The notes under the pieces: model-generated
Seen by the model: the letters and a program-made list of their open reading frames with translations, nothing else
Databases searched by the model: none
What the model was told of the DNA's origin: nothing
Source: Bacteroidales bacterium
GTDB lineage: Bacteria > Bacteroidota > Bacteroidia > Bacteroidales > WCHB1-69
Length of the DNA: 64,000 bases
Direction of reading: 5' to 3'
NCBI GenBank assembly: GCA_017540505.1
Contig: JAFYAW010000018.1
Location: 21,286-85,285 of the forward strand
Made by a program: the position numbers and the translations under genes
In this document: one piece after another, positions 19,211 to 62,454 of the stretch
Layout: every line of letters starts with the position of its first letter
Numbering within the stretch: the stretch's first letter is position 1

Positions 19211-19242
19211 ATTACAATATTATTATAAATTTCAAAACAATC

Positions 19243-20418
19243 TTATTTGCTGGTTATAGCCTCCTTGACTTCCGAGAGGATGTCGTCGAGATTCTGACAG
19301 GCGGTGATGGCTTCCGCGTTGGCGGGGTTGGCATAGTTGCGTACAAATGGCACAGGCATGGCATTGATCTTAGCCTTGGCGTTGTTGATGGCTTCCACCA
19401 CGCGGCTGTCAAGATCGGCATCCACAGCCTTCACGTAGCCGTGCAGGGAATATTTCTCGCTTTGGCTTCCCTCCACGCCGCCATAGTATGCATGTTCGAT
19501 GCTTACGATGTTGTTATAAAAGTCCTCGATGGATTTCTGGCTGTAGGGTGATTCGATGTAGGTGGGGTCCTCGCCGTTGTAAGGCTTGCCGATCTTGGAG
19601 GTGCCCACCTCATCGGCGATGGTCTTGCATCCGTCCACGATGGCTAAAAGGCCCTGCACGGTGCTGATGTAGGTGCTGCCGGCGTTGCCCGCCTTCATCA
19701 GGTTGTCGCCATAGCTGTAGCTGCCGCCGTTGACAGTGGTGTTGAGTTCCAGCTCTTCCACTTTGTCGCGGTGCGACTTGGCGGCATTGTCGCCAATCCA
19801 GCTTACCTCCAATTGGAAACAGCGGTTGCGGAGGTCGCCGGCCACGGCGATGGCATATACCAGTTCGGTGTTCGTGATGGCCTCTGCGCTCTTTGGCTGA
19901 CCGTCAGCAAAGAGGATGTATTCAATGCCGTGGAAGCCGAGAAGCGAGTTGCCGAGTTGCTCGCCGGCCACCACATCGCCGTCTTCGCCCCCGAGGGCAG
20001 CCACCATGTTCGGACTGCTCATCAGATTGAGGAAGGCATCCTCATCCAATGGCCAGGAGTCGATGTGCGGGTCGATGCCGAAGTCGGAGGCGGCACCGAA
20101 GAGGAAGGCCTCGCTCTTCTCCCACCAGGAACGGGCGGTAAGGAAAGTGGCGCAGACCTGATTGAGGTTGCCCTGCGTGGGACTGGCCTTGAAGGTCTTG
20201 AGTTCCGTCACCAACTGGTCGGTGTAGTTGGCCAGATGGGTGTATGTGGGCTGGATGGTGTTTTCCACATATTGTTTCAGGATAGCCGTTTGGGTTTCAT
20301 CTTTCAGATAGTTGCCTCCATGATGGCAGGAGGTGGCAAGCACTGCAATAGCGCAAAGGGCAAAACAGAGAATTTTGGATACGTTTTTCATTTTGTTGTG
20401 ATATTTAATGTTATACAA
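19243..20418 (-). CDS. Imelysin-like (peptidase M75 family) lipoprotein
   Basis: Lipoprotein signal (LATSC) and a GIDPHIDSWPLDE-type motif. An alternative start is MKNVSK at 20391. Confidence 0.65.
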   Translation of the reverse strand: MYNIKYHNKMKNVSKILCFALCAIAVLATSCHHGGNYLKDETQTAILKQYVENTIQPTYTHLANYTDQLVTELKTFKASPTQGNLNQVCATFLTARSWWEKSEAFLFGAASDFGIDPHIDSWPLDEDAFLNLMSSPNMVAALGGEDGDVVAGEQLGNSLLGFHGIEYILFADGQPKSAEAITNTELVYAIAVAGDLRNRCFQLEVSWIGDNAAKSHRDKVEELELNTTVNGGSYSYGDNLMKAGNAGSTYISTVQGLLAIVDGCKTIADEVGTSKIGKPYNGEDPTYIESPYSQKSIEDFYNNIVSIEHAYYGGVEGSQSEKYSLHGYVKAVDADLDSRVVEAINNAKAKINAMPVPFVRNYANPANAEAITACQNLDDILSEVKEAITSK

Positions 20419-20445: not shown

Positions 20446-21804
20446 CTACCGCGATTTTTCTTTGGTGAAATCATGTTTGAAGAAGGCAGCCCAGGTGATG
20501 CCAAGGGCCATCCAGGGCTCGTGGTTGTATTGCGATTTGAGCAGCCGTACGCCCGCCTCGGCCTTGACGGTAATTTCGGGTATGGGCCGGTAGTTGATGC
20601 CGCCGCTCACACAATGGCGGTCACTCCATTGGTAATCAATGAGTCCCGGAGCGGGGATGTAGGAATCGTAGTATTCGTAGCGGGCGAAGACAAAGAAGTT
20701 GTGTCCCCGCAGGCGGGAGCTCTCTTTTGCGAGTCGGAAAAAATCGAAGCCCACTTCCCCGCCGGCGGTCCAGGCGGCCATGCCCACCAGTGTGTGCGGG
20801 TAGGGCGATTGGCTGCTGTTGGAAAGTGTGGCGTTGAAGGAGGATACCATGGCGGCATCTGTGAGATAACCGTAGAGGCCACTGCCCCGCAGGATCAGGC
20901 CTCCAGTCTGGTAGCTGAAGTCCAGTCCCCCGATGGCTACGGTGCCGCGCACATCGGCGTAGCGAGTGGAGTGCTCGTCGGTGATGATGTCGTTGCGGAA
21001 ACAGTTGCCCACATAGCCGCTGACCCCCACATGCAGGCCTTTGACGCTGTAGTTGTCCACACGGGCGGCCACGGCCAACTTGTTGGCCACGCGGAACTCG
21101 TAGGGGGATGCGGATCCGTTGTGTACCCATCCCGACACGTTGAAGAAACTGGAGTTGAGGGCGGGGATGAGCATCACATCGTAGCGCCATCCCTTGATGC
21201 GGCCCCAGAGTTCGATGCCGTTCTCGTGCCAGGTGCAGGGGATGATGGTGTTCTCGCCCTCGGGACGATACACGCCGAAGAACTCATTGGGCAGGTGGGC
21301 GTTGTTGGTGCCGCCCACCGGCACCACGATGTGTCCGGCCCGGATGTTGATTTTGGAGCCGAGGAAGGACTTCTGCAGCCAGAACTGTTCCAAGGCCACC
21401 TCGCCGCCCCGTTCCGTCTCCTGCTCGAACTCTCCCGACTCCTCGGCCTCCACTTCCACGGCGGATTCCGTGCCGCCATGCTCGAATTCCACCTCCGTGT
21501 TGAACGTCCAACCATGCCCGAAATCGTAGCCCAACAGGAACACGGCGTGCGGAAGATCCATGCGACCATGTCCCTTGGATTGGGTGTAGCGATCCGCATG
21601 GGAGTAGCGGAACACATTGTCGCTGTAGAAATTGTATTTGTAAACGCCCTCGCCATATCCGCCGATGGTCAGCCGGCCACGGGAGCGCACCGAATCGGTG
21701 TCCGCTTTTTTGGCCGATAGGGAATCAGCGCTGGAAGCGGCGTTAACAAATTGAAATCCAAATAAACAGGTTAGAAATAAGAGTAAAAAGGAAATTCTTC
21801 GCAT
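20446..21804 (-). CDS. Outer-membrane porin-like beta-barrel protein
   Basis: Start moved to MRRISFLLLF (signal peptide), because the -7 box at 21824-21831 lies downstream of the longer ORF's ATG at 21861. Beta-strand-rich with an aromatic C-terminal region. Confidence 0.6.
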   Translation of the reverse strand: MRRISFLLLFLTCLFGFQFVNAASSADSLSAKKADTDSVRSRGRLTIGGYGEGVYKYNFYSDNVFRYSHADRYTQSKGHGRMDLPHAVFLLGYDFGHGWTFNTEVEFEHGGTESAVEVEAEESGEFEQETERGGEVALEQFWLQKSFLGSKINIRAGHIVVPVGGTNNAHLPNEFFGVYRPEGENTIIPCTWHENGIELWGRIKGWRYDVMLIPALNSSFFNVSGWVHNGSASPYEFRVANKLAVAARVDNYSVKGLHVGVSGYVGNCFRNDIITDEHSTRYADVRGTVAIGGLDFSYQTGGLILRGSGLYGYLTDAAMVSSFNATLSNSSQSPYPHTLVGMAAWTAGGEVGFDFFRLAKESSRLRGHNFFVFARYEYYDSYIPAPGLIDYQWSDRHCVSGGINYRPIPEITVKAEAGVRLLKSQYNHEPWMALGITWAAFFKHDFTKEKSR

Positions 21805-21823
21805 AGACAATTTTTTTAACGCA

Positions 21824-21831
21824 CAAAAATA
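21824..21831 (-). promoter_or_regulatory. -7 box TATTTTTG (minus strand) for the porin/imelysin/di-haem operon
   Basis: Reverse complement of CAAAAATA, 20 nt upstream of the ATG at 21804. Confidence 0.55.
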
Positions 21832-21926
21832 GTATGCGCTTTTTCGGTGTGGTGTAACCAAAAATAGGGAAAAAGAGGAAAGGGTATAATTATAAATGAG
21901 GATGTGGTTTTTGCGTTGATTTTTTT

Positions 21927-21934
21927 TATCTTTG
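21927..21934 (+). promoter_or_regulatory. -7 box TATCTTTG at the left edge of AT-rich island 1
   Basis: TAnnTTTG about 210 nt upstream of the lipoprotein ATG at 22144, which implies a long leader. Confidence 0.45.
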
Positions 21935-22143
21935 CAACGTTAAATTAATATACTATTTGTTGTCATGAAAACTTTTGACAGGAAGATACCTTTTCCATAT
22001 AAGTCAGAAGCCCTTTTGAGGGCGTGCCAGAACAAGTCTCCCGGTGTTTGGGATTCCTCCTGTCGAAACAAAGGATCCCTGTGCGGGAGGAATGGAATGG
22101 GACAATACAATACAAATTTATTCATCCAAAAAAACAAAACGTT

Positions 22144-23724
22144 ATGAAATTTTATAAATTAATATTATTAGTAGTTCTTCTATTTGTTGCCAGCTCTTGT
22201 AAAAAGGAAGATGTGTTTGGCTATAAATTCTTAAATTACGAATTATGTCTCGATAATCCTCTTTTTGAAAGTATGCTTGATGAAATTAACCAGTATGACA
22301 CGTATGTGAATAATGATGGTATCATGGTGTTTGACAATAGAGAGGCATTGAAAAATACGATCGAAATACTTGAAACATATTGTGACTCTATTATTGCTTC
22401 CGACACTTCCTTGTCGTATGGTGATATTCTTAATGCATTTGGTTGTGCTTACCATTTTCAATCTTTATATACAAAGATTGAAAATCAGATTGAATATTTG
22501 GAACAGAATGAACTGCTTTCAGAACAAAATGACCCAGACATTCACTTTATAGGTAATATTTTCCTTCGAGCAATACTAACTCCAGATTGTGAGATAATTG
22601 TTGGAGATACATGGTATATACTTCAGGACGGTTTTACTTTAGGAATTATGAACCACGATGCAGAGGCAAGAAGTGATTTGTTGGAGCTTATTCAAAACAA
22701 TGGTTCAAAGGAAAATTTTTTCTTTTACTGTAATACACATAAAAACGCATTCATAACTTCATATGGAGAAGCAGATGTGAAACCTGAATTTGTTTGCCAA
22801 GTGTCATCTTCCAATCTGTTAAATTATTCTTTCATTAACATGACATCGTGTGAGGAATACACAGGTGTGACCTATTTGTGGACTTTTGGTGACGGTTATA
22901 CATCTACTTTGTCCAATCCATCACATACTTATTCTATTGCAGGAACTTATACTGTACGTCTGACAGCAAGTTATAATGGGGTTAGTAAAATGTGTGAGAA
23001 AGTCCTAAATGTGGGAGGAGAAAGCGCAAATTTTACCTATAGTAAAGATCAAGATGGTGTTTTTTATTTCTCTGCACAGATAAGTGATACCAATATTGTC
23101 GTTGTAGGATATGAATGGGATTTTGGTGATGGAACAGTTGTTCAGACAAATGAAGGGAATTGTACACATGTATTTAGCGATGAGGAGGAAACATACCACG
23201 TTAGTCTTTCGATTATTAAACCGTTGGAAAATACAATATTGCATGAAAAGAACCTTTCGGATTTGTGGCATCCATACTGTCGGCCTTTAGCCTGTTGTTA
23301 TTCTGGGACATCAGCATATCCACATAGACATCTTGGTGATAATTATTATGCTAAGACTGCAATTTCAGTATATAATTCTTATATTCTTCATAATATAATG
23401 ACCAGAACGATTTATCTTAAAAAAAGGAACAATGGGACTTATAGAAGAATAAAAGCCGAAAAAATAGGAACAAAAATGCAAGGTGCAATATACGTACCTT
23501 GGAATAATAGTGACAATGGTAGTGATTGTGGTATAGAAGAATATATTAGTTTGCCCAAAATAAAATACAATCAAAGGGAAGTGGTTAAATCATTGGTCCT
23601 TTATTATGAAACATATTTTAAGGTTGCATATTTGAGTTTAGCTGCTTCGTCTTGTATTAATGAAGGTGATTTTCATTTGGGTGTGATTGTCCATAACCAT
23701 GAAAATCAATCTGTTAACCCTTAA
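22144..23724 (+). CDS. Lipoprotein with two PKD-like domains
   Basis: Start chosen at MKFYKLILLVVLLFVASSC (lipobox). PKD signatures WTFGDGYTSTLSNPSHTYSIAGTYTVRL and WDFGDGTVVQTNEGNCTHVFS...YHVSL. The gene is AT-rich. Confidence 0.7.
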   Translation: MKFYKLILLVVLLFVASSCKKEDVFGYKFLNYELCLDNPLFESMLDEINQYDTYVNNDGIMVFDNREALKNTIEILETYCDSIIASDTSLSYGDILNAFGCAYHFQSLYTKIENQIEYLEQNELLSEQNDPDIHFIGNIFLRAILTPDCEIIVGDTWYILQDGFTLGIMNHDAEARSDLLELIQNNGSKENFFFYCNTHKNAFITSYGEADVKPEFVCQVSSSNLLNYSFINMTSCEEYTGVTYLWTFGDGYTSTLSNPSHTYSIAGTYTVRLTASYNGVSKMCEKVLNVGGESANFTYSKDQDGVFYFSAQISDTNIVVVGYEWDFGDGTVVQTNEGNCTHVFSDEEETYHVSLSIIKPLENTILHEKNLSDLWHPYCRPLACCYSGTSAYPHRHLGDNYYAKTAISVYNSYILHNIMTRTIYLKKRNNGTYRRIKAEKIGTKMQGAIYVPWNNSDNGSDCGIEEYISLPKIKYNQREVVKSLVLYYETYFKVAYLSLAASSCINEGDFHLGVIVHNHENQSVNP

Positions 23725-23736
23725 ACCGATGTTGTT

Positions 23737-24285
23737 ATGAAAAAATCAGTCTTTATTTTTATGTTATTGATTATCTGTTTGTTGTCGTTTTCACAAACAG
23801 ATAATGTAGAATCAACAAAAAAAATACAATATTATCATTCGATAGATTTAGGGTCAGGTTTTGAAAAATGGAAACCAGGAGTATCAACTTGGGGAGTGTC
23901 CATTCGGGAAACACATGGGATGCTGATTAAACAGCACGTGGTGGTGGGTTTGAATTTGGAATTTTTGTATGCCAATATTTATCGCAATGATGGGGAAGGT
24001 TGTGATGTGCTTGCATTTTCGAGTGGTTTGGATTTGCGGTATTTTATTCTTAAAAAATATAAATGGACACCTTTTTTAATGTTCAAATGGAATGTGGGAT
24101 TAACGATAGTGGGCAAGACTCGTAATCGTCCGATGGAGTATGCGGACGTATATCCGTTATTTGACAATATATCATTTTTTGTGGGTTGTAATTATTCATT
24201 TAAAGAGAAAAAGAGTGTTTATATGGCTTTAGGGTGCGATATGATATATCCAGGTCCGGCTTTCCGTATCGGGGTGCGGTTTTAA
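23737..24285 (+). CDS. Small outer-membrane beta-barrel protein
   Basis: Signal peptide; alternating strands; C-terminal ...FRIGVRF. Lies 13 nt after the PKD gene. Confidence 0.6.
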   Translation: MKKSVFIFMLLIICLLSFSQTDNVESTKKIQYYHSIDLGSGFEKWKPGVSTWGVSIRETHGMLIKQHVVVGLNLEFLYANIYRNDGEGCDVLAFSSGLDLRYFILKKYKWTPFLMFKWNVGLTIVGKTRNRPMEYADVYPLFDNISFFVGCNYSFKEKKSVYMALGCDMIYPGPAFRIGVRF

Positions 24286-24312
24286 GATATCCCGATGGAA
24301 CATATAAACGTT

Positions 24313-24344
24313 AAGGCTGACCTGTTATGGGTCAGCCTTTTTTT
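24313..24344 (+). terminator. Intrinsic terminator
   Basis: 10-bp stem AAGGCTGACC/GGTCAGCCTT followed by T7. Confidence 0.8.
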
Positions 24345-24394
24345 CTATATCCGGCGAATACTTAACGACTACACCGGACAAATATACAGAGATT

Positions 24395-24592
24395 ATGTAC
24401 AAGACACCGAACAACTTCAAGCTCGCATTTTTTTATGACACAAAAGACAAAAATCCGTCATGGAAGTTGATAATGCAAATAAAGGATTACACATACAGGT
24501 CTCTCGTTGAGATTGACAAGGATGACATATCAGTGCTTGTTCAAGATTTTGAAAGTGCATACAATAGAATAAAATCAGCCATTGGGGAATAG
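24395..24592 (+). CDS. Small hypothetical protein (65 aa)
   Basis: AT-rich ORF. Its last codons lie in the 5' arm of the 24572-24609 hairpin. No homology recognised. Confidence 0.3.
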   Translation: MYKTPNNFKLAFFYDTKDKNPSWKLIMQIKDYTYRSLVEIDKDDISVLVQDFESAYNRIKSAIGE

Positions 24593-24609
24593 TCCTCAAT
24601 GGCTGATTT
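24572..24609. terminator. 13-bp palindromic hairpin, candidate bidirectional terminator
   Basis: AAATCAGCCATTG / CAATGGCTGATTT with a 12-nt loop. T-rich tails are present on both strands. Confidence 0.6.
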
Positions 24610-24853
24610 GTTTGTTTAACACAAGCGCTCTCGATACTCCTTTTACATTGAAGGTGTACACGTTGCGATTGACATCAATATGGACGCAGTCTTTTCGCTC
24701 TATCCTATTCATTAAGGACAGAACCTCTGTAAGGTCAACTTGTTGGTAGCTGTCAAGCGTCCTCGTGTTGAGCGGCATGACCTTGAAGCCAACAGGCAGG
24801 TCTATGATTAGCATTGGTCGGTCTTTCACGTAATTATTGCCTTCTTCGGTCAC
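24596..24853 (-). CDS. Small hypothetical protein (85 aa)
   Basis: AT-rich ORF convergent with 24395..24592. Its last codons lie in the 3' arm of the same hairpin. Confidence 0.35.
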   Translation of the reverse strand: MTEEGNNYVKDRPMLIIDLPVGFKVMPLNTRTLDSYQQVDLTEVLSLMNRIERKDCVHIDVNRNVYTFNVKGVSRALVLNKQISH

Positions 24854-24918
24854 AAACTACGGACTTCCTCCCTTGCCGACAACAGCGTCACCGCCAGAGT
24901 GGTGGCTCGTTCCTTCCG

Positions 24919-25253
24919 GTTTTAAAACAATCGTATTTATGCACCCTAAAAACTCGAAACGTGCAACCCCATACGGGGTTGTGGGTTCGGCTGGGAATGC
25001 CCTCGGCTACAGATAGGGAACCCCTAGCGGGGTTCAGCGGAATTCGGAAACAAAACAAGATTCCGGCATCAACCGATACACCGCAGACACCCGCATTGGG
25101 CTTAAATGCAATACTGTGCCGGAGGAGGCGGTGGTGAGGTAAAGTGAGGTGAGGTATGACGAGGTAAGGTAAGACGACTGTCTGTAGCAAACGGATGCCA
25201 CACGTGGTTTTCAAATCTCCGTAGGAGATTCATATTCAACGGCTAATGGACGG
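24919..25253 (+). repeat. Copy A of a ~335-bp palindrome-rich repeat element (3' arm partly degenerate)
   Basis: The 123-nt core 24953-25075 differs at only 2 positions from 26220-26342. Hairpins at 24964-24981, 25018-25035 and 25215-25229. CTACAGATAGG box at 25007-25017. Confidence 0.85.
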
Positions 25254-25289
25254 GTCTCCCGTTTAAAACAATTGTATTTTTTGCACCCT

Positions 25290-25351
25290 AAAAACATTGT
25301 AGGAGCATTCTCACAGGAGATCCTGCCTCCTTTCAAATGCTCCTACAATGT
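25290..25351 (-). terminator. Intrinsic terminator downstream of hicB
   Basis: 15-bp stem ACATTGTAGGAGCAT/ATGCTCCTACAATGT (25294-25308 / 25337-25351) followed by T5 on the minus strand. Confidence 0.65.
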
Positions 25352-25388
25352 GCGTCCGAAAACGACACGGCAAAAATACAAAAAACAA

Positions 25389-25793
25389 CTATAAGAGTTG
25401 TACCGCGGCCAGTTCTCTTCCAATCTTGTGAATCGCGGTCTGAATCTTTGACACTTGCTTTTCCGACACATACTGGCCGTGCTTGTATTGGCGCATCAAA
25501 GAGGGGTTGATGCCGGCATATTTTGCAAATTGTGTCATATTCAGTATTTTGTAATAGCTCAAGAAAGAAGGCATATCATATTTATATACGAATGTCGTGT
25601 TTTTCAAATCGTCGGGATCGGGTTTTCCCGTTTCCTCAAACACTTCTATAAATTCCCTAACTGAATTTTCAAAATCGGCTTTAGCCTCGGCGACAGTGCT
25701 GCCGTTTCCAAACATAACGGATTTTGTGTCAGGAGAGAACACACCGAATGTTCCGTCTTTGCCAATTTCTATTAATGCGACTTTCTTTTTCAT
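25389..25793 (-). CDS. hicB: HicB-family antitoxin with C-terminal HTH
   Basis: N-terminus (KVALIEIGKDGTFGVFSPD...GSTVAEAKADFENSVREFIE) is HicB-like. C-terminal XRE-like HTH (MTQFAKYAGINPSLMRQYKHG). An alternative start lies at 25829. Confidence 0.75.
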   Translation of the reverse strand: MKKKVALIEIGKDGTFGVFSPDTKSVMFGNGSTVAEAKADFENSVREFIEVFEETGKPDPDDLKNTTFVYKYDMPSFLSYYKILNMTQFAKYAGINPSLMRQYKHGQYVSEKQVSKIQTAIHKIGRELAAVQLL

Positions 25794-25818
25794 AATTCTA
25801 TGCTTTTGTTGATTTCTA

Positions 25819-26001
25819 TTAAAAACCAATCAATTTCTTCAACTTGCAATACAATCCGTACTTTATTTCCTGCGAACCATGACGTTCAATTTTCAAAAGT
25901 TCATTCTTTTCTGCGTGGGCATATATGTCATGATTAGCACCATTTCGCAAAAGATACCATCCTTTAGATTCGGCTATCCGTCTGAGTTCGCTCCATTTCA
26001 T
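25819..26001 (-). CDS. hicA: HicA-family mRNA interferase toxin
   Basis: MKWSELRRIAESKGWYLLRNGANHDIY...ERHGSQEI fits the HicA/YcfA pattern. The internal start is supported by the -7 box at 26026-26033, which lies inside the longer ORF. Confidence 0.75.
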   Translation of the reverse strand: MKWSELRRIAESKGWYLLRNGANHDIYAHAEKNELLKIERHGSQEIKYGLYCKLKKLIGF

Positions 26002-26025
26002 ACTCCACTGCTTTTGACCATGCTG

Positions 26026-26033
26026 CAAACATA
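26026..26033 (-). promoter_or_regulatory. -7 box TATGTTTG (minus strand) for hicAB
   Basis: Reverse complement of CAAACATA, 25 nt upstream of the hicA ATG at 26001. Confidence 0.45.
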
Positions 26034-26187
26034 TAACTTTTTTGCAATATACCAATACTCTTTAAAAAAATTATTTCTCCCTATCCATCAATTATTTACA
26101 TACTTTCTATAAATATAATTGCTGAAACTGTGCTGCAATATCAAAAGTTTTTTCCAAGACTATTGTATTTATAGAGTTTGCCATTTA

Positions 26188-26530
26188 GTTTTAAAACAAT
26201 CGCATTTACACAATAAAAACTCGAAACGTGCAACCCCATACGGGGTTGTGGGTCCGGCTGGGAATGCCCTCGGCTACAGATAGGGAACCCCTAACGGGGT
26301 TCAGCGGAATTCGGAAACAAAACAAGATTCCGGCATCAACCGCCACGCCGCATACACCCGCATCGGACTGATATGCAATACCGCGCCAGAGGAGGCGGTG
26401 GTGAGGTAAAGTGAGGTGAGACGAGACGTGGTACAACATCCCCGTAGGGGATGCCTATCTGTAGCAAACGTATTCCACACGTGGTTTTCAAATCTCCGTA
26501 GGAGATTCATATTCAACGGTTCATGGACGG
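26188..26530 (+). repeat. Copy B of the ~340-bp palindrome-rich repeat element (most complete copy)
   Basis: Hairpins at 26231-26248, 26285-26302, 26437-26453 and 26492-26506. GCTACAGATAGG (26273-26284) is a perfect complement of CCTATCTGTAGC (26454-26465). Confidence 0.85.
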
Positions 26531-26609
26531 CCTATTCCCACATCAGGAAAACAAAAGACAGCTCGTTGAGAGAACAAGGGTGGAAAGAACCACAAACGAT
26601 AATTTTTCG

Positions 26610-26617
26610 TATTTTTG
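26610..26617 (+). promoter_or_regulatory. -7 box TATTTTTG for trpS
   Basis: TAnnTTTG 23 nt upstream of the ATG at 26640. Confidence 0.6.
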
Positions 26618-26639
26618 CACCCCTAAAAATTATCGTAAA

Positions 26640-27635
26640 ATGGATAAAGTAGCAAGCGGCATACGGCCCACCGGTTTCCTCCATCTCGGCAACTATTTCG
26701 GTGCCTTGAGGAATTTTATCAAAATGCAGAATGAGAACAACTGCTATTTCTTCATCGCGGATTACCATTCCCTGACCACCCATCCCAACCCGACGGACCT
26801 GCGCACCAACGTGCGCAACGTGCTGATCGACTATCTGGCGGCCGGTCTGGATCCGGAGAAGGCCACTATCTATGTGCAGAGCGATGTGCCCGAGGTGTGC
26901 GAGCTGAGCCTGCTGCTCTCCATGAATGTGTATGTGGGTGAGCTGCAGCGCGTGGCATCCTTCAAGGAGAAGGTGCGCCGCCAGCCCAACAACGTCAACG
27001 CCGGCCTGCTCAACTATCCCGTGCTGATGGCTGCCGACATCCTGCTGCACCGCGCCGACAAGGTGCCCGTGGGCAAGGACCAGGAACAGCATCTGGAGAT
27101 GACCCGCGACTTCGCCCAGCGCTTCAACCACATCTACAAACACGAGTATTTCAAACTGCCCGTGGCCTACAACTTCGGCAACGAGTTGGTGAAGATCCCT
27201 GGCCTGGACGGCTCCACTAAGATGTCCAAGTCCGACAATGAGGGCTCCTGCATATACCTCTCCGACGCGCCCGAGGTGGTGCGCAAGAAGATTATGCGTG
27301 CTGTCTCCGACAGCGGCCCGACGGAGCCCGGTCAGCCTAAATCGCAGGCGGTGGAGAACCTCTTCAGCCTGATGAAGGCCGTCTCCACGCCGGATACGGT
27401 GCAATACTTTGAAGACCAGTACCAGGCCTGCCAGATCCGTTACGGGGATATGAAGAAACAGTTGGCCGCGGATATGATTGCGTTCATACAGCCTATATAT
27501 GAGCGCATTATAGAACTGCGTTCCAAAGACGAATACATTAGCAAAGTGGCCCGCATGGGTGCGGAAAAGGCCCGCGAAAGCGCTTCCAAGACCGTGCGCG
27601 AGGTGCGCGAAATCATCGGATTCAAGGCTTTGTAA
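26640..27635 (+). CDS. trpS: Tryptophan--tRNA ligase
   Basis: Start at MDKVASGIRPTGFLHLGNYFGA (HIGH-type). KMSKS motif present (KMSKSD). 331 aa. Confidence 0.92.
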   Translation: MDKVASGIRPTGFLHLGNYFGALRNFIKMQNENNCYFFIADYHSLTTHPNPTDLRTNVRNVLIDYLAAGLDPEKATIYVQSDVPEVCELSLLLSMNVYVGELQRVASFKEKVRRQPNNVNAGLLNYPVLMAADILLHRADKVPVGKDQEQHLEMTRDFAQRFNHIYKHEYFKLPVAYNFGNELVKIPGLDGSTKMSKSDNEGSCIYLSDAPEVVRKKIMRAVSDSGPTEPGQPKSQAVENLFSLMKAVSTPDTVQYFEDQYQACQIRYGDMKKQLAADMIAFIQPIYERIIELRSKDEYISKVARMGAEKARESASKTVREVREIIGFKAL

Positions 27636-51954: not shown

Positions 51955-51962
51955 TTTTTCGC

Positions 51963-51970
51963 TATTTTTG
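51963..51970 (+). promoter_or_regulatory. -7 box TATTTTTG for tsaE
   Basis: TAnnTTTG 25 nt upstream of the ATG at 51995. It lies inside the longer ORF, which supports the internal start. Confidence 0.55.
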
Positions 51971-51994
51971 CAGCATAAAAAAACGGAAAGGAAA

Positions 51995-62380: not shown

Positions 62381-62454
62381 GGTCCCTTAGCGCAGTTGGT
62401 TAGAGCAACTGACTCATAATCAGTAGGTCCTTGGTTCGAGCCCAAGAGGGACCA
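62381..62454 (+). tRNA. tRNA with CAT anticodon (Met elongator, or Ile2 if lysidinylated)
   Basis: Acceptor GGTCCCT/AGGGACC. D-arm GCGC-AGTTGGTTA-GAGC. Anticodon stem ACTGA/TCAGT with loop CTCATAA. T-arm CTTGG-TTCGAGC-CCAAG. Discriminator A. Confidence 0.9.

Follow-up and report, generated by a model that had tools for sequence, protein, structure and literature searches.

The direct repeats bracketing hicAB upstream of trpS in a Bacteroidales genome are probably debris of earlier gene cassettes

Results

The hicAB locus upstream of trpS

The window, by which we mean the whole 64-kb stretch of DNA that was analysed, carries the tryptophanyl-tRNA synthetase gene trpS (PF00579; plus strand, 26640-27635), which forms the conserved right anchor of a variable region. 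Within this region lie the genes of a toxin-antitoxin pair, both on the minus strand: hicA, encoding a 60-aa toxin (25819-26001), and hicB, encoding a 134-aa antitoxin (25389-25793). The HicA product matches the Pfam family HicA_toxin (PF07927) with E=2.4e-7 and 31.2 bits against a cut-off of 27. The HicB protein itself gave no Pfam, NCBIfam or useful PDB sequence match; among its 441 homologues several bear the name HicB family antitoxin at the source (NCBI or JGI), one carries PF15919, and the homologues adjoin HicA genes. A long hairpin at 25296-25353 serves as the hicB terminator on the minus strand, and the Rfam match to AEV_CRE found there is spurious. The GC content around the locus is low, 0.31-0.41 over 21.8-26.2 kb.

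A preliminary description of this DNA had reported two direct copies of about 340 bp bracketing hicAB, and these are real: copy A (24919-25253) and copy B (26188-26530), both on the plus strand, align with 87.5% identity over 345 columns (E=1.5e-121), a result on which repeat search, MAFFT and blastn agree, and their start-to-start spacing is 1267-1277 nt. The alignment also bears out the reported 123-nt cores (24953-25075 and 26220-26342), which differ at two positions, and shows 91% identity over the terminal 81 nt; a 29-mer of the core occurs exactly twice in the window, against zero expected from shuffles. Nothing but hicA, hicB, their promoter and their terminator lies between the copies, as had been stated. 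The statement that integrases and transposases are missing holds near the copies as well, and neither these nor other recombinases were found within 6 kb on either side or among the 20 larger ORFs of the window that were tested. The element gave no match by BLASTN against PLSDB plasmids and INPHARED phages or in IMG/VR pattern scans, and a protein search with a spurious ORF crossing it gave none either.

Overlooked so far was that each copy constitutes one large imperfect palindrome, and that the 10-nt difference in length is accounted for by an additional hairpin, H4 (26437-26453), in copy B, which is kept in most copies of other strains and lost from copy A. Equally overlooked was a third, partial repeat right after copy A, where the P motif, which makes up the initial ~35 nt of the element, recurs at 25261-25295.

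Anatomy of the repeat

All parts of the repeat are given on the plus strand. Copy A has as its left border the promoter-like motif P1 (24919-24953), with the left-half core GTTTTAAAACAATCGTATTT and the right half TATGCACCCTAAAAAC, followed by module M2 (24958-25035), which consists of hairpin H1 (24963-24982), the box GCTACAGATAGG (25006-25017) and hairpin H2 (25018-25035). Hairpin H3 (CGGAAT...ATTCCG, 25038-25065) marks the junction between M2 and a pseudogene relic (25068-25142) of a gene that we call geneX, comprising its last ~24 codons in the frame INRYTADTRIGLKCNTVPEEAVVR plus the stop codon. A purine-rich GGTGAGG/GGTAAGG tract (25143-25177), whose length differs among copies, leads to module M1 (25178-25253) with the box CTGTCTGTAGC (25178-25188), hairpins H5 (25198-25207) and H6 (25214-25230) and a tail (25231-25253), H4 being deleted.

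Directly 3' of copy A, the second P motif, P2 (25261-25295), bounds the hicAB segment on the left, while P3 (26188-26220; core GTTTTAAAACAATCGCATTT) is at the same time the right border of that segment and the left border of copy B. Then follow M2 (26225-26302; H1 26230-26249, box 26273-26284, H2 26285-26302), H3 (26305-26332), the relic of the geneX 3' end (26335-26409; frame INRHAAYTRIGLICNTAPEEAVVR plus stop) and M1 (26437-26530), which has H4 at its start, the box CCTATCTGTAGC (26454-26465), H5 (26475-26484), H6 (26491-26507) and the tail (26508-26530). The trpS promoter, P4 (26608-26629; -7 box TATTTTTG), resembles the right half of P. At two loci, direct repeats of P delimit the element bodies as well as both hicAB segments.

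The modules M1 and M2, of ~70 nt each, are inverted homologues of one another: an M2 profile matches 26513-26438 on the minus strand (nhmmer, E=1.3e-6), and pairwise alignment also pairs M2 (26232-26299) with M1 (26440-26507) on the opposite strand. Their best-conserved part is the internal GCTACAGATAGG box, not the ends. The hairpin stems are conserved and the loops variable, and H2 shows one compensatory change from C-G to G-C, which suggests that some selection or homogenisation maintains the hairpins, and that they may be more than debris. Beside intact geneX, in the homologous loci L046-L051, both modules are absent.

The claim that the element is non-coding does not hold for its middle, which is what survives of the 3' end of a gene for a restriction-type nuclease/helicase. 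GeneX encodes a T5orf172/helicase protein of ~840 aa with T5orf172 and ResIII domains, which matches a type IIG REase model (E=3.6e-34), and in L043 and L046-L050 the element profile matches geneX at the 3' end of its coding sequence (nhmmer, E 2e-7 to 1.7e-16). The identity between the element middle and the geneX end is 80.5% at the nucleotide level, in the same reading frame; the relic in copy A is identical to L043 geneX at 58/78 nt, and that in copy B at 62/77 nt to L043 and at 57/75 to L046. Since the middle is a gene relic, we read the element as cassette debris and not as a discrete, dedicated element.

GeneX has characteristic neighbours: a pair of genes for proteins of 63 and 104 aa normally lies between an MmeI/Eco57I-type methyltransferase gene and geneX. 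Among related Bacteroidales, M2 and M1 flank the intact 63/104 pair in two genomic contexts (L014 and L017), with further contexts in L043 and L059, and in L014 the last codons of the methyltransferase gene persist beside M2. Independent deletions of geneX that left residual stumps are seen in L055, L043 and L059. The promoter of the 63/104-aa cassette in L046 is identical to the right half of P1 at 19/21 positions and to P2 at 33/39. No Pfam, NCBIfam or PADLOC match was obtained for the 63-aa, 104-aa, 65-aa, 72-aa and 182-aa proteins, nor a useful PDB sequence match for the 104-aa protein. That geneX is repeatedly lost while the neighbouring 63/104-aa pair is retained constitutes a separate lead on this uncharacterised module.

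Alleles and related loci

The trpS-upstream allele that had been predicted, with a single element and no hicAB, exists in a related strain (L018). A contig with an identical TrpS (L006) carries neither element nor hicAB, P4 being the sole part of the repeat system present there, and three-copy alleles also exist (L003). In the related Bacteroidales MAG Tb.RUG.328, two copies upstream of maf bracket a different hicBA pair, beside DUF4160/DUF2442, and diverged copies are found at further loci. The repeats thus belong to a pre-existing family, as had been proposed, and are not a one-off local duplication. The census of copies was made from exact 20-mer matches and is hence incomplete; at least four copies at two loci matched in the one genome that was hit. 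Copies are also found beside unrelated genes, for example maf and EamA.

Copies A and B are each about as distant from the single copy in L018 as from one another, and the three-way informative sites, compared to see whether the L018 copy is an A/B recombinant, give a mixed pattern; L018 may represent a deletion between copies or else the ancestral state. Derived bases common to A and B are missing from their orthologues in other strains, an indication of gene conversion.

Larger blocks recur as well. A truncated form of the maf-type block var-M1-P-promoter-hicB recurs upstream of trpS in L003, the two unrelated flanking contexts of L014 and L017 share the unit var-M1-linker-M2-63/104-M1, and arrays of the kind M1-linker-M2-(cargo)-M1-P-(hicBA)-P-M2-...-M1 are found in L017 and L007. 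Several indel borders fall exactly at the 19-20-nt P core, both in the comparison of the window with L018 and at both flanks of hicBA in L007; the segment by which the window differs from L018 extends from the left edge of one P core to just before the next. Such borders fit site-specific recombination better than general homologous recombination. Many other breakpoints lie off P and are of the illegitimate or microhomology type (the fusions in L001 and L003 and the deletion in L020).

The exact HicB protein was found at the trpS-upstream locus only, and hicAB homologues at 82-87% protein identity (~76% at the DNA level) occur in three other contexts without element or P nearby. The proposal of a composite mobilisable unit with the element as its ends is therefore unsupported, and the same three contexts led us to reject hicAB as a unit that carries the element with it. 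Of the preliminary mobility interpretation, the pre-existing repeat family and the single-element allele remain, while the composite unit and the purely non-coding nature do not.

Discussion

The analysis establishes the anatomy of the copies, their homologies and the population polymorphism of zero, one, two or three copies, with or without hicAB. On balance, and by no wide measure, we think it probable that each ~340-bp copy is a decayed stump left by a cassette of defence genes, neither a dedicated RNA gene nor a self-mobile element. It consists, in order, of a copy P of the cassette promoter, M2, H3, the end of geneX, a slippage-prone purine tract and an inverted M1. Repeated deletion of geneX has left 3' stumps of various lengths, of which the element type in the window is the most reduced form. 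The stumps are found in a small number of intergenic islets, among them those in front of trpS and of maf, where they alternate with small selfish cassettes: two hicAB pairs unrelated to each other, DUF4160/DUF2442 and the 63/104 pair. The copies may serve as portable stretches of homology and as breakpoint sites, so that recombination between or beside them could bring in, remove or rearrange cassettes like hicAB, gene conversion would keep parts of the copies near-identical, and the GC-rich hairpins would serve, at the most, to terminate transcription or to insulate cassettes from each other. The trpS-upstream region is accordingly best read as a strain-variable hotspot at which small selfish cassettes are gained, lost and reshuffled.

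Intergenic mosaic repeats are familiar from the BIMEs of enterobacteria, which are arrays of REP units, and from the NIMEs/dRS3 of Neisseria. The present system resembles them in having palindromic hairpin units in alternating orientation with two distinct kinds of linker (as in L017 and L007), in being strictly intergenic, and in forming rearrangement hotspots of strain-variable content between conserved genes. It differs from them in that its units, at ~70 nt with two hairpins and one 12-nt box, exceed theirs in length, the copy number is low, and the linkers contain promoter copies and gene relics. We know of no RAYT-type protein in this lineage.

The strongest competitor of the debris reading, although we hold it to be unlikely, is an integron-, rAID- or Xer-like array in which the ~20-35-nt P motif is an attachment site, and the P-bounded segments, that is element bodies and hicAB pairs, are cassettes moved by a tyrosine or serine recombinase encoded elsewhere. 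The recurrence of P around both kinds of segment at two loci agrees with this, as do the run of the window/L018 difference from core edge to next core and the perfect palindrome GTTTTAAAAC inside the P core. There is also a precedent in the Bacteroidales, namely the rAID-1 arrays, for which "repetitive intergenic sequences reminiscent of integrons" have been described (bioRxiv 10.1101/471110) and which by definition are headed by a XerD-family tyrosine recombinase (PMC12247911). Against it stand the lack of any recombinase within the 6-kb flanks or among the larger window ORFs tested, the many breakpoints that miss P, and the close hicAB homologues elsewhere without an adjoining P. Furthermore, P is homologous to an ordinary cassette promoter, and its recurrence may therefore merely mark cassette starts. 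Neither does P qualify as a dif-like Xer site, a possibility that we rejected: the reverse complement of P1 agrees by eye with E. coli dif, a reference from outside the Bacteroidetes, at 8/11 and 8/11 positions, but only P1, P2 and P4 show such a resemblance and the conserved core does not, and since the XerC-like arm is absent from P3 and the L007 copies, the 28-bp site with XerC and XerD arms in all copies that characterises Xer/dif modules (IMEX, pdif) is not found here.

A more specific proposal, which we regard as improbable, makes the P-bounded segments cassettes of an integron-like system of uncultured Bacteroidales with a distant recombinase, the 19-nt P core GTTTTAAAACAATCGYATTT being the crossover site and M1/M2 being attC-like folded structures. 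Like integrons, CALINs and rAID-1, the locus presents arrays in which small, strain-variable cassettes of low GC content, toxin-antitoxin pairs among them, are set apart by repeated structured spacers. Unlike in those systems, there is no linked integrase or XerD-family recombinase, and the cassettes, which lack a common orientation, carry promoters of their own; in the comparison with rAID-1, low GC content and repeated intergenic motifs are present, but the genes are not co-oriented. The repeat, at ~340 bp, also exceeds the 57-141 bp of integron attC sites, and as inspection by eye revealed no convincing GTTRRRY/RYYYAAC (R''/R') pair of core sites, a reading of the repeat as integron attC was discarded. 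If the integron-like proposal were true, a distant recombinase would bring toxin-antitoxin cassettes and defence cassettes, by shuffling, to sites close to the promoters of housekeeping genes (trpS, maf).

We consider it equally improbable that the repeat is a non-autonomous transposon, MITE or mobile insertion cassette (MIC) with M2 and M1 as ~70-nt terminal inverted repeats and a transposase acting in trans, the empty form being the MITE and the form with 63/104 a cargo cassette. M2 and M1 are indeed inverted homologues around a non-coding middle or passenger genes, the unit var-M1-linker-M2-63/104-M1 does recur in two unrelated contexts, and an internal deletion that leaves a scrap of internal sequence, as seems to have taken place here, is the classic origin of a MITE; restriction-modification units with flanking inverted repeats of 26-65 bp are also on record (PMC2853133). 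Short target-site duplications and consistent outer ends are, on the other hand, missing, every copy being bordered by P or linker and none abutting unrelated DNA directly. Conservation is highest inside the modules and not at their ends, no transposase-bearing relative turned up among 59 loci, and the copy number is low (four copies at two loci by exact 20-mer in one genome). Finally, the modules alternate in long arrays, so that both "phases" can be read as units.

That the element is a functional structured RNA transcribed from P, either an sRNA or a cis-acting leader of trpS, appears very doubtful. It has a stable fold with a long-range stem (z = -2.4 and -4.3), its stems are conserved while the loops vary, with the one compensatory change, and promoter-like sequence is present at its 5' end. 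The minus strand, however, folds about equally well, as is expected of a DNA palindrome, and no relevant Rfam match was obtained in 24800-26700 even at E<=10, the only matches at gathering score in the whole window being two tRNAs. P3 has a poor -7 box, the element has a gene relic in its middle and, after it, a slippage tract of variable length, copies lie beside unrelated genes (maf, EamA), and the element is dispensable for trpS, because L006 does without it. Control of trpS through the GAG-rich tract by a T-box, trp-leader or TRAP-like mechanism was also rejected: the tract varies in length, follows the stop codon of the relic, is found beside maf as well and is absent in L006 together with all the rest of the element.

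Hardly credible any longer is a simple tandem duplication in situ, or a fresh insertion that duplicated a long target, restricted to this locus: the single-copy allele L018 does exist, and direct repeats flanking an addiction module with no mobility gene have been described for restriction-modification units (PMC2853133), but A and B, at only 87.5% identity and with indels, are each about as far from the L018 copy as from each other, further loci and other species carry the element too, and the second locus (L007) together with the A/B divergence largely refutes the idea.

The likeness to the long-target-duplication insertions on record (PMC2853133) is nevertheless instructive. As in those, a small selfish unit lies between direct repeats of more than 30 bp, one repeat is present at the empty site of a related genome (L018), and mobility genes are missing; the repeat at the present locus even derives in part from a restriction-modification locus. 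In contrast to those insertions, the cargo is hicAB and not a restriction-modification pair, and the repeats, of 335-343 bp, are neither near-identical nor confined to one site, copies also lying upstream of maf in the related MAG. An insertion between pre-existing repeats consequently fits the locus better than a fresh target duplication.

With alleles of zero, one, two and three copies available in public metagenomes, the mechanism, homologous recombination or site-specific recombination at P, is directly testable. A practical lesson is that a well-folding "non-coding element" of ~340 nt that precedes a gene for a tRNA synthetase can prove to be a palindromic pseudogene mosaic and not a riboregulator. 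Read as cassette debris, the trpS-upstream region offers a natural worked example of how toxin-antitoxin and defence cassettes accumulate beside essential genes without a linked mobility gene: the remains of earlier cassettes, namely a copied promoter, what is left of a gene and the hairpin modules, persist as repeats that mark, and probably mediate, the later gain, loss and reshuffling of others.

Genomic setting of the hicAB repeat pair

The window belongs to the core chromosome of an uncultured Bacteroidales, with housekeeping neighbours such as cytochrome c assembly, peptidase M75, TrpS, SOD, TrmD, GlnS and others, and its GC content drops to 0.31-0.41 over approximately 21.8-26.2 kb, compared with about 0.55-0.60 in the surroundings. 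The direct repeats that the preliminary description placed around hicAB are real: copy A (24919-25253) and copy B (26188-26530) have the same orientation, are spaced by 1267-1277 bp and show 87.5% identity over 345 columns (E=1.5e-121), with two differing positions in the 123-nt core and 91% identity in the 3' 81 nt. A core 29-mer occurs exactly twice in the window and never in shuffled sequences. As also described, the copies enclose hicA (25819-26001, minus strand, Pfam HicA_toxin), hicB (25389-25793, minus strand), a long terminator hairpin (25296-25353) and otherwise an AT-rich promoter region. The HicB protein has no Pfam match of its own and has 441 homologues, several named HicB antitoxin at source. 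Overlooked until now was a third occurrence of the element's first ~35 nt, the promoter-like P motif, right behind copy A, giving P1 (24919-24953), P2 (25261-25295) and P3 (26188-26220). The reported lack of a transposase or integrase held within 6 kb and among the 20 larger ORFs tested.

Between the repeat region and a conserved 450-aa gene is a low-GC island (21800-24900) that encodes a PKD-domain protein (ORF 22024-23724; 526 aa as called on related contigs) and, at 23737-24285, a signal-peptide-bearing protein of 182 aa. Gene content here varies among contigs with identical TrpS: L006 carries only a 176-aa homologue, and in L003 a 200-aa gene replaces the PKD gene. That 200-aa gene, intact in L003 (2008-2610), has left a 3' remnant in the window as a 65-aa ORF (24395-24592, plus strand), whose 5' part is joined to a truncated element copy in three contigs (L001, L004 and L005); the convergent 72-aa ORF (24596-24814, minus strand) gave no family match. 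The tRNA genes at 126-212 (87 nt, long-arm type) and 62381-62454 (74 nt) do not adjoin the variable region. Isolated P-like motifs at 19230-19248 (TTTCAAAACAATCTTATTT, differing from the P core at two positions and located in a short gap between genes) and 51962-51982 (CTATTTTTGCAGCATAAAAAA, differing from the right half of P at three positions and resembling the flanking promoter copies of metagenome locus L019) may be solo sites or chance matches.

Alleles at the trpS locus

Twenty-three contigs were found by exact look-up of the TrpS protein, and most have the window arrangement or a variant with an altered copy A, which in L001, L004 and L005 is 5'-truncated and joined to a small ORF. L003 has three element copies, and L006 has neither element nor hicAB, the terminator of the upstream 176-aa gene being followed directly by the trpS promoter. 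The predicted hicAB-free allele with a single element was found in L018, a metagenome contig from a strain approximately 93-95% identical, in which a lone element lies between the left and right flanks known from the window, followed by trpS. The DNA that the window has in excess of L018 begins at the left edge of the P1 core and stops immediately ahead of the P3 core. Where A and B disagree, the L018 copy is sometimes A-like and sometimes B-like (B-like in P and the 3' end), and it can therefore be assigned neither as ancestor nor as deletion product.

Occurrence of the element at other loci

When 185,579 species genomes were scanned for an exact 20-mer, the sole relevant hit was the MAG 'Bacteroidales bacterium Tb.RUG.328', with matches at the orthologous trpS locus (L009) and at a second locus (L007). 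The order at L007 is a DUF4160/DUF2442 pair, terminator, internally deleted element, P, a different, same-strand hicB-hicA pair, P, full element, P and maf. Both gene pairs at L007 have a near-identical promoter segment of ~25 nt, AAAATGCTATCTTTGCGGCGTTAA (L007 6385-5824 (-), 5357 and 6422; L003 3336), which also heads a truncated hicB in L003.

A second 20-mer scan, of metagenomes, found more diverged copies behind an EamA gene (L016), adjoining a membrane-protein gene (L015, L019, L020), adjoining tRNA-Phe (L014) and on a mosaic contig (L017). At L014 an element array with a pair of 63-aa and 104-aa genes (the 63/104 pair) lies ~430 bp from the tRNA-Phe gene (968-1041). Transfer RNA genes are classic integration targets; no integrase is visible on this 2.7-kb contig. 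The element had no match in plasmid, phage or viral-contig collections.

Close hicAB homologues from other Bacteroidales (82-87% protein identity, ~76% DNA) occur in three unrelated settings that lack both the element and P, so the element is not part of the hicAB module. The exact HicB protein was found only at the trpS-upstream locus. The cassette/mobility interpretation of the preliminary description is partly supported, by the predicted hicAB-free allele and by the other loci; no evidence was found for a composite mobilisable unit with the element as its ends.

Structure and origin of the element

A profile built from the element's 5' half matches, on the opposite strand, its 3' half (nhmmer E ~1e-6), in agreement with pairwise alignment. 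The halves contain two ~70-nt modules, M2 (hairpin H1, box GCTACAGATAGG, hairpin H2) and M1 (hairpin H4, box CCTATCTGTAGC, H5, hairpin H6), and M2 is an inverted homologue of M1, which makes the element a large imperfect palindrome. Hairpin stems are nearly invariant and loops variable, with one compensatory C-G to G-C change in H2. In arrays the module orientation alternates, with two kinds of spacer, P (or a shorter 'linker' version) and a middle segment, and genes can occupy either: hicAB pairs occupy the P spacer with P duplicated on each side (window, L007), and the 63/104 pair sits in the middle between M2 and M1 (L014, L017, L043).

The preliminary description took the element to be non-coding, which does not hold for its middle. 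When contigs with homologues of the 104-aa protein were scanned with element profiles, the middle matched the 3' coding ends of an ~840-aa gene (geneX), which lies directly downstream of the 63/104 pair in L046-L051 and occurs in L043 as well. Copy B is identical to the geneX end of L043 at 62/77 nt, and translated in the geneX frame it reads INRHAAYTRIGLICNTAPEEAVVR before the stop, as compared with the C-terminus GINRHAGDTRIGLMDSTVPIEAMLGDDKG before the stop in L046. GeneX combines a T5orf172 nuclease-like N-terminus with a ResIII helicase domain, scores E=3.6e-34 against a type IIG restriction enzyme model and is preceded by MmeI/Eco57I-type methyltransferase genes; in L014 the last methyltransferase codons (EIAFIESMIRPME, then stop) remain between M2 and the 63/104 promoter. 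P2 agrees with the 63/104 promoter of L046 at 33/39 positions, and P1 and the trpS promoter P4 (26608-26629) at 19/21; elsewhere in the window the extended motif is rare.

The overlapping 63/104 genes (L046 3813-6908; L043, L055, L059) are uncharacterised, with about 155 relatives, all 'hypothetical', and usually lie between the methyltransferase and the nuclease gene. GeneX has suffered several independent deletions leaving stumps of unequal length (L055, L043, L059), each of which kept the 63/104 pair; in L055 the nuclease start codon is joined to its last ~7 codons. Behind the stop codon of the relic is a purine-rich GGTGAGG/GGTAAGG-like tract (25125-25175, 26395-26430), and its length, different in nearly every copy, suggests replication slippage. 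On these comparisons, the most reduced form in the series is the window-type element, made up of promoter copy, M2, junction hairpin, geneX stump, slippage tract and M1.

The 5' core of A and B has derived bases in common, GGT.CGGCTGGG, where orthologous copies in other strains read GGCT.GGCCGGG. This points to gene conversion within the window lineage, which would explain the near-identical core. At the trpS locus of L003 there is a truncated version of the maf-locus block (83% over 486 nt), consisting of middle segment, M1, P, promoter and the 5' end of the maf-type hicB, and in L017 a window-type M1-P2-hicBA-P3-B block (96% identical) is joined to an unrelated left context.

Interpretation

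We lean towards the copies being cassette debris in a small toxin-antitoxin/defence islet, serving cassettes as portable homology and preferred breakpoints. From the allele series we infer recombination acting on the copies; cassettes would be gained, lost and reshuffled there, with a possible further role of the hairpins as terminators or insulators. Site-specific recombination at the P core by a recombinase in trans is suggested by some borders clustering on its 19 nt; further breakpoints are plain illegitimate or microhomology events, and despite an array-level likeness to CALINs and Bacteroidales rAID-1 the locus fails the recombinase test that defines both, and we regard this explanation as unlikely. 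That the element is a MITE or MIC would agree with the inverted modules M1 and M2, and seems rather improbable. A functional RNA is very improbable: the predicted long-range stem and good folding energies are explained by the palindrome, the minus strand folds about equally well, and no Rfam family matched even at E<=10. A purely local duplication is scarcely credible for copies found at other loci.

The hicAB genes with A and B fit a known pattern, in which an addiction module sits between long direct repeats and the empty site has one copy of the repeat (Furuta et al. 2010, PMC2853133). Since the repeats are diverged and are also found at other loci, they fall in the class of insertion between pre-existing repeats (PMC2853133), an option already raised in the preliminary description, rather than fresh target duplication. 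Neither Rfam nor the literature searched contained a description of this repeat family. BIMEs and NIMEs are intergenic mosaic repeats of similar architecture. Taken as cassette debris, the element belongs with the mosaic intergenic repeats and the repeat-flanked addiction modules, and its derivation from such debris is unusually clear.
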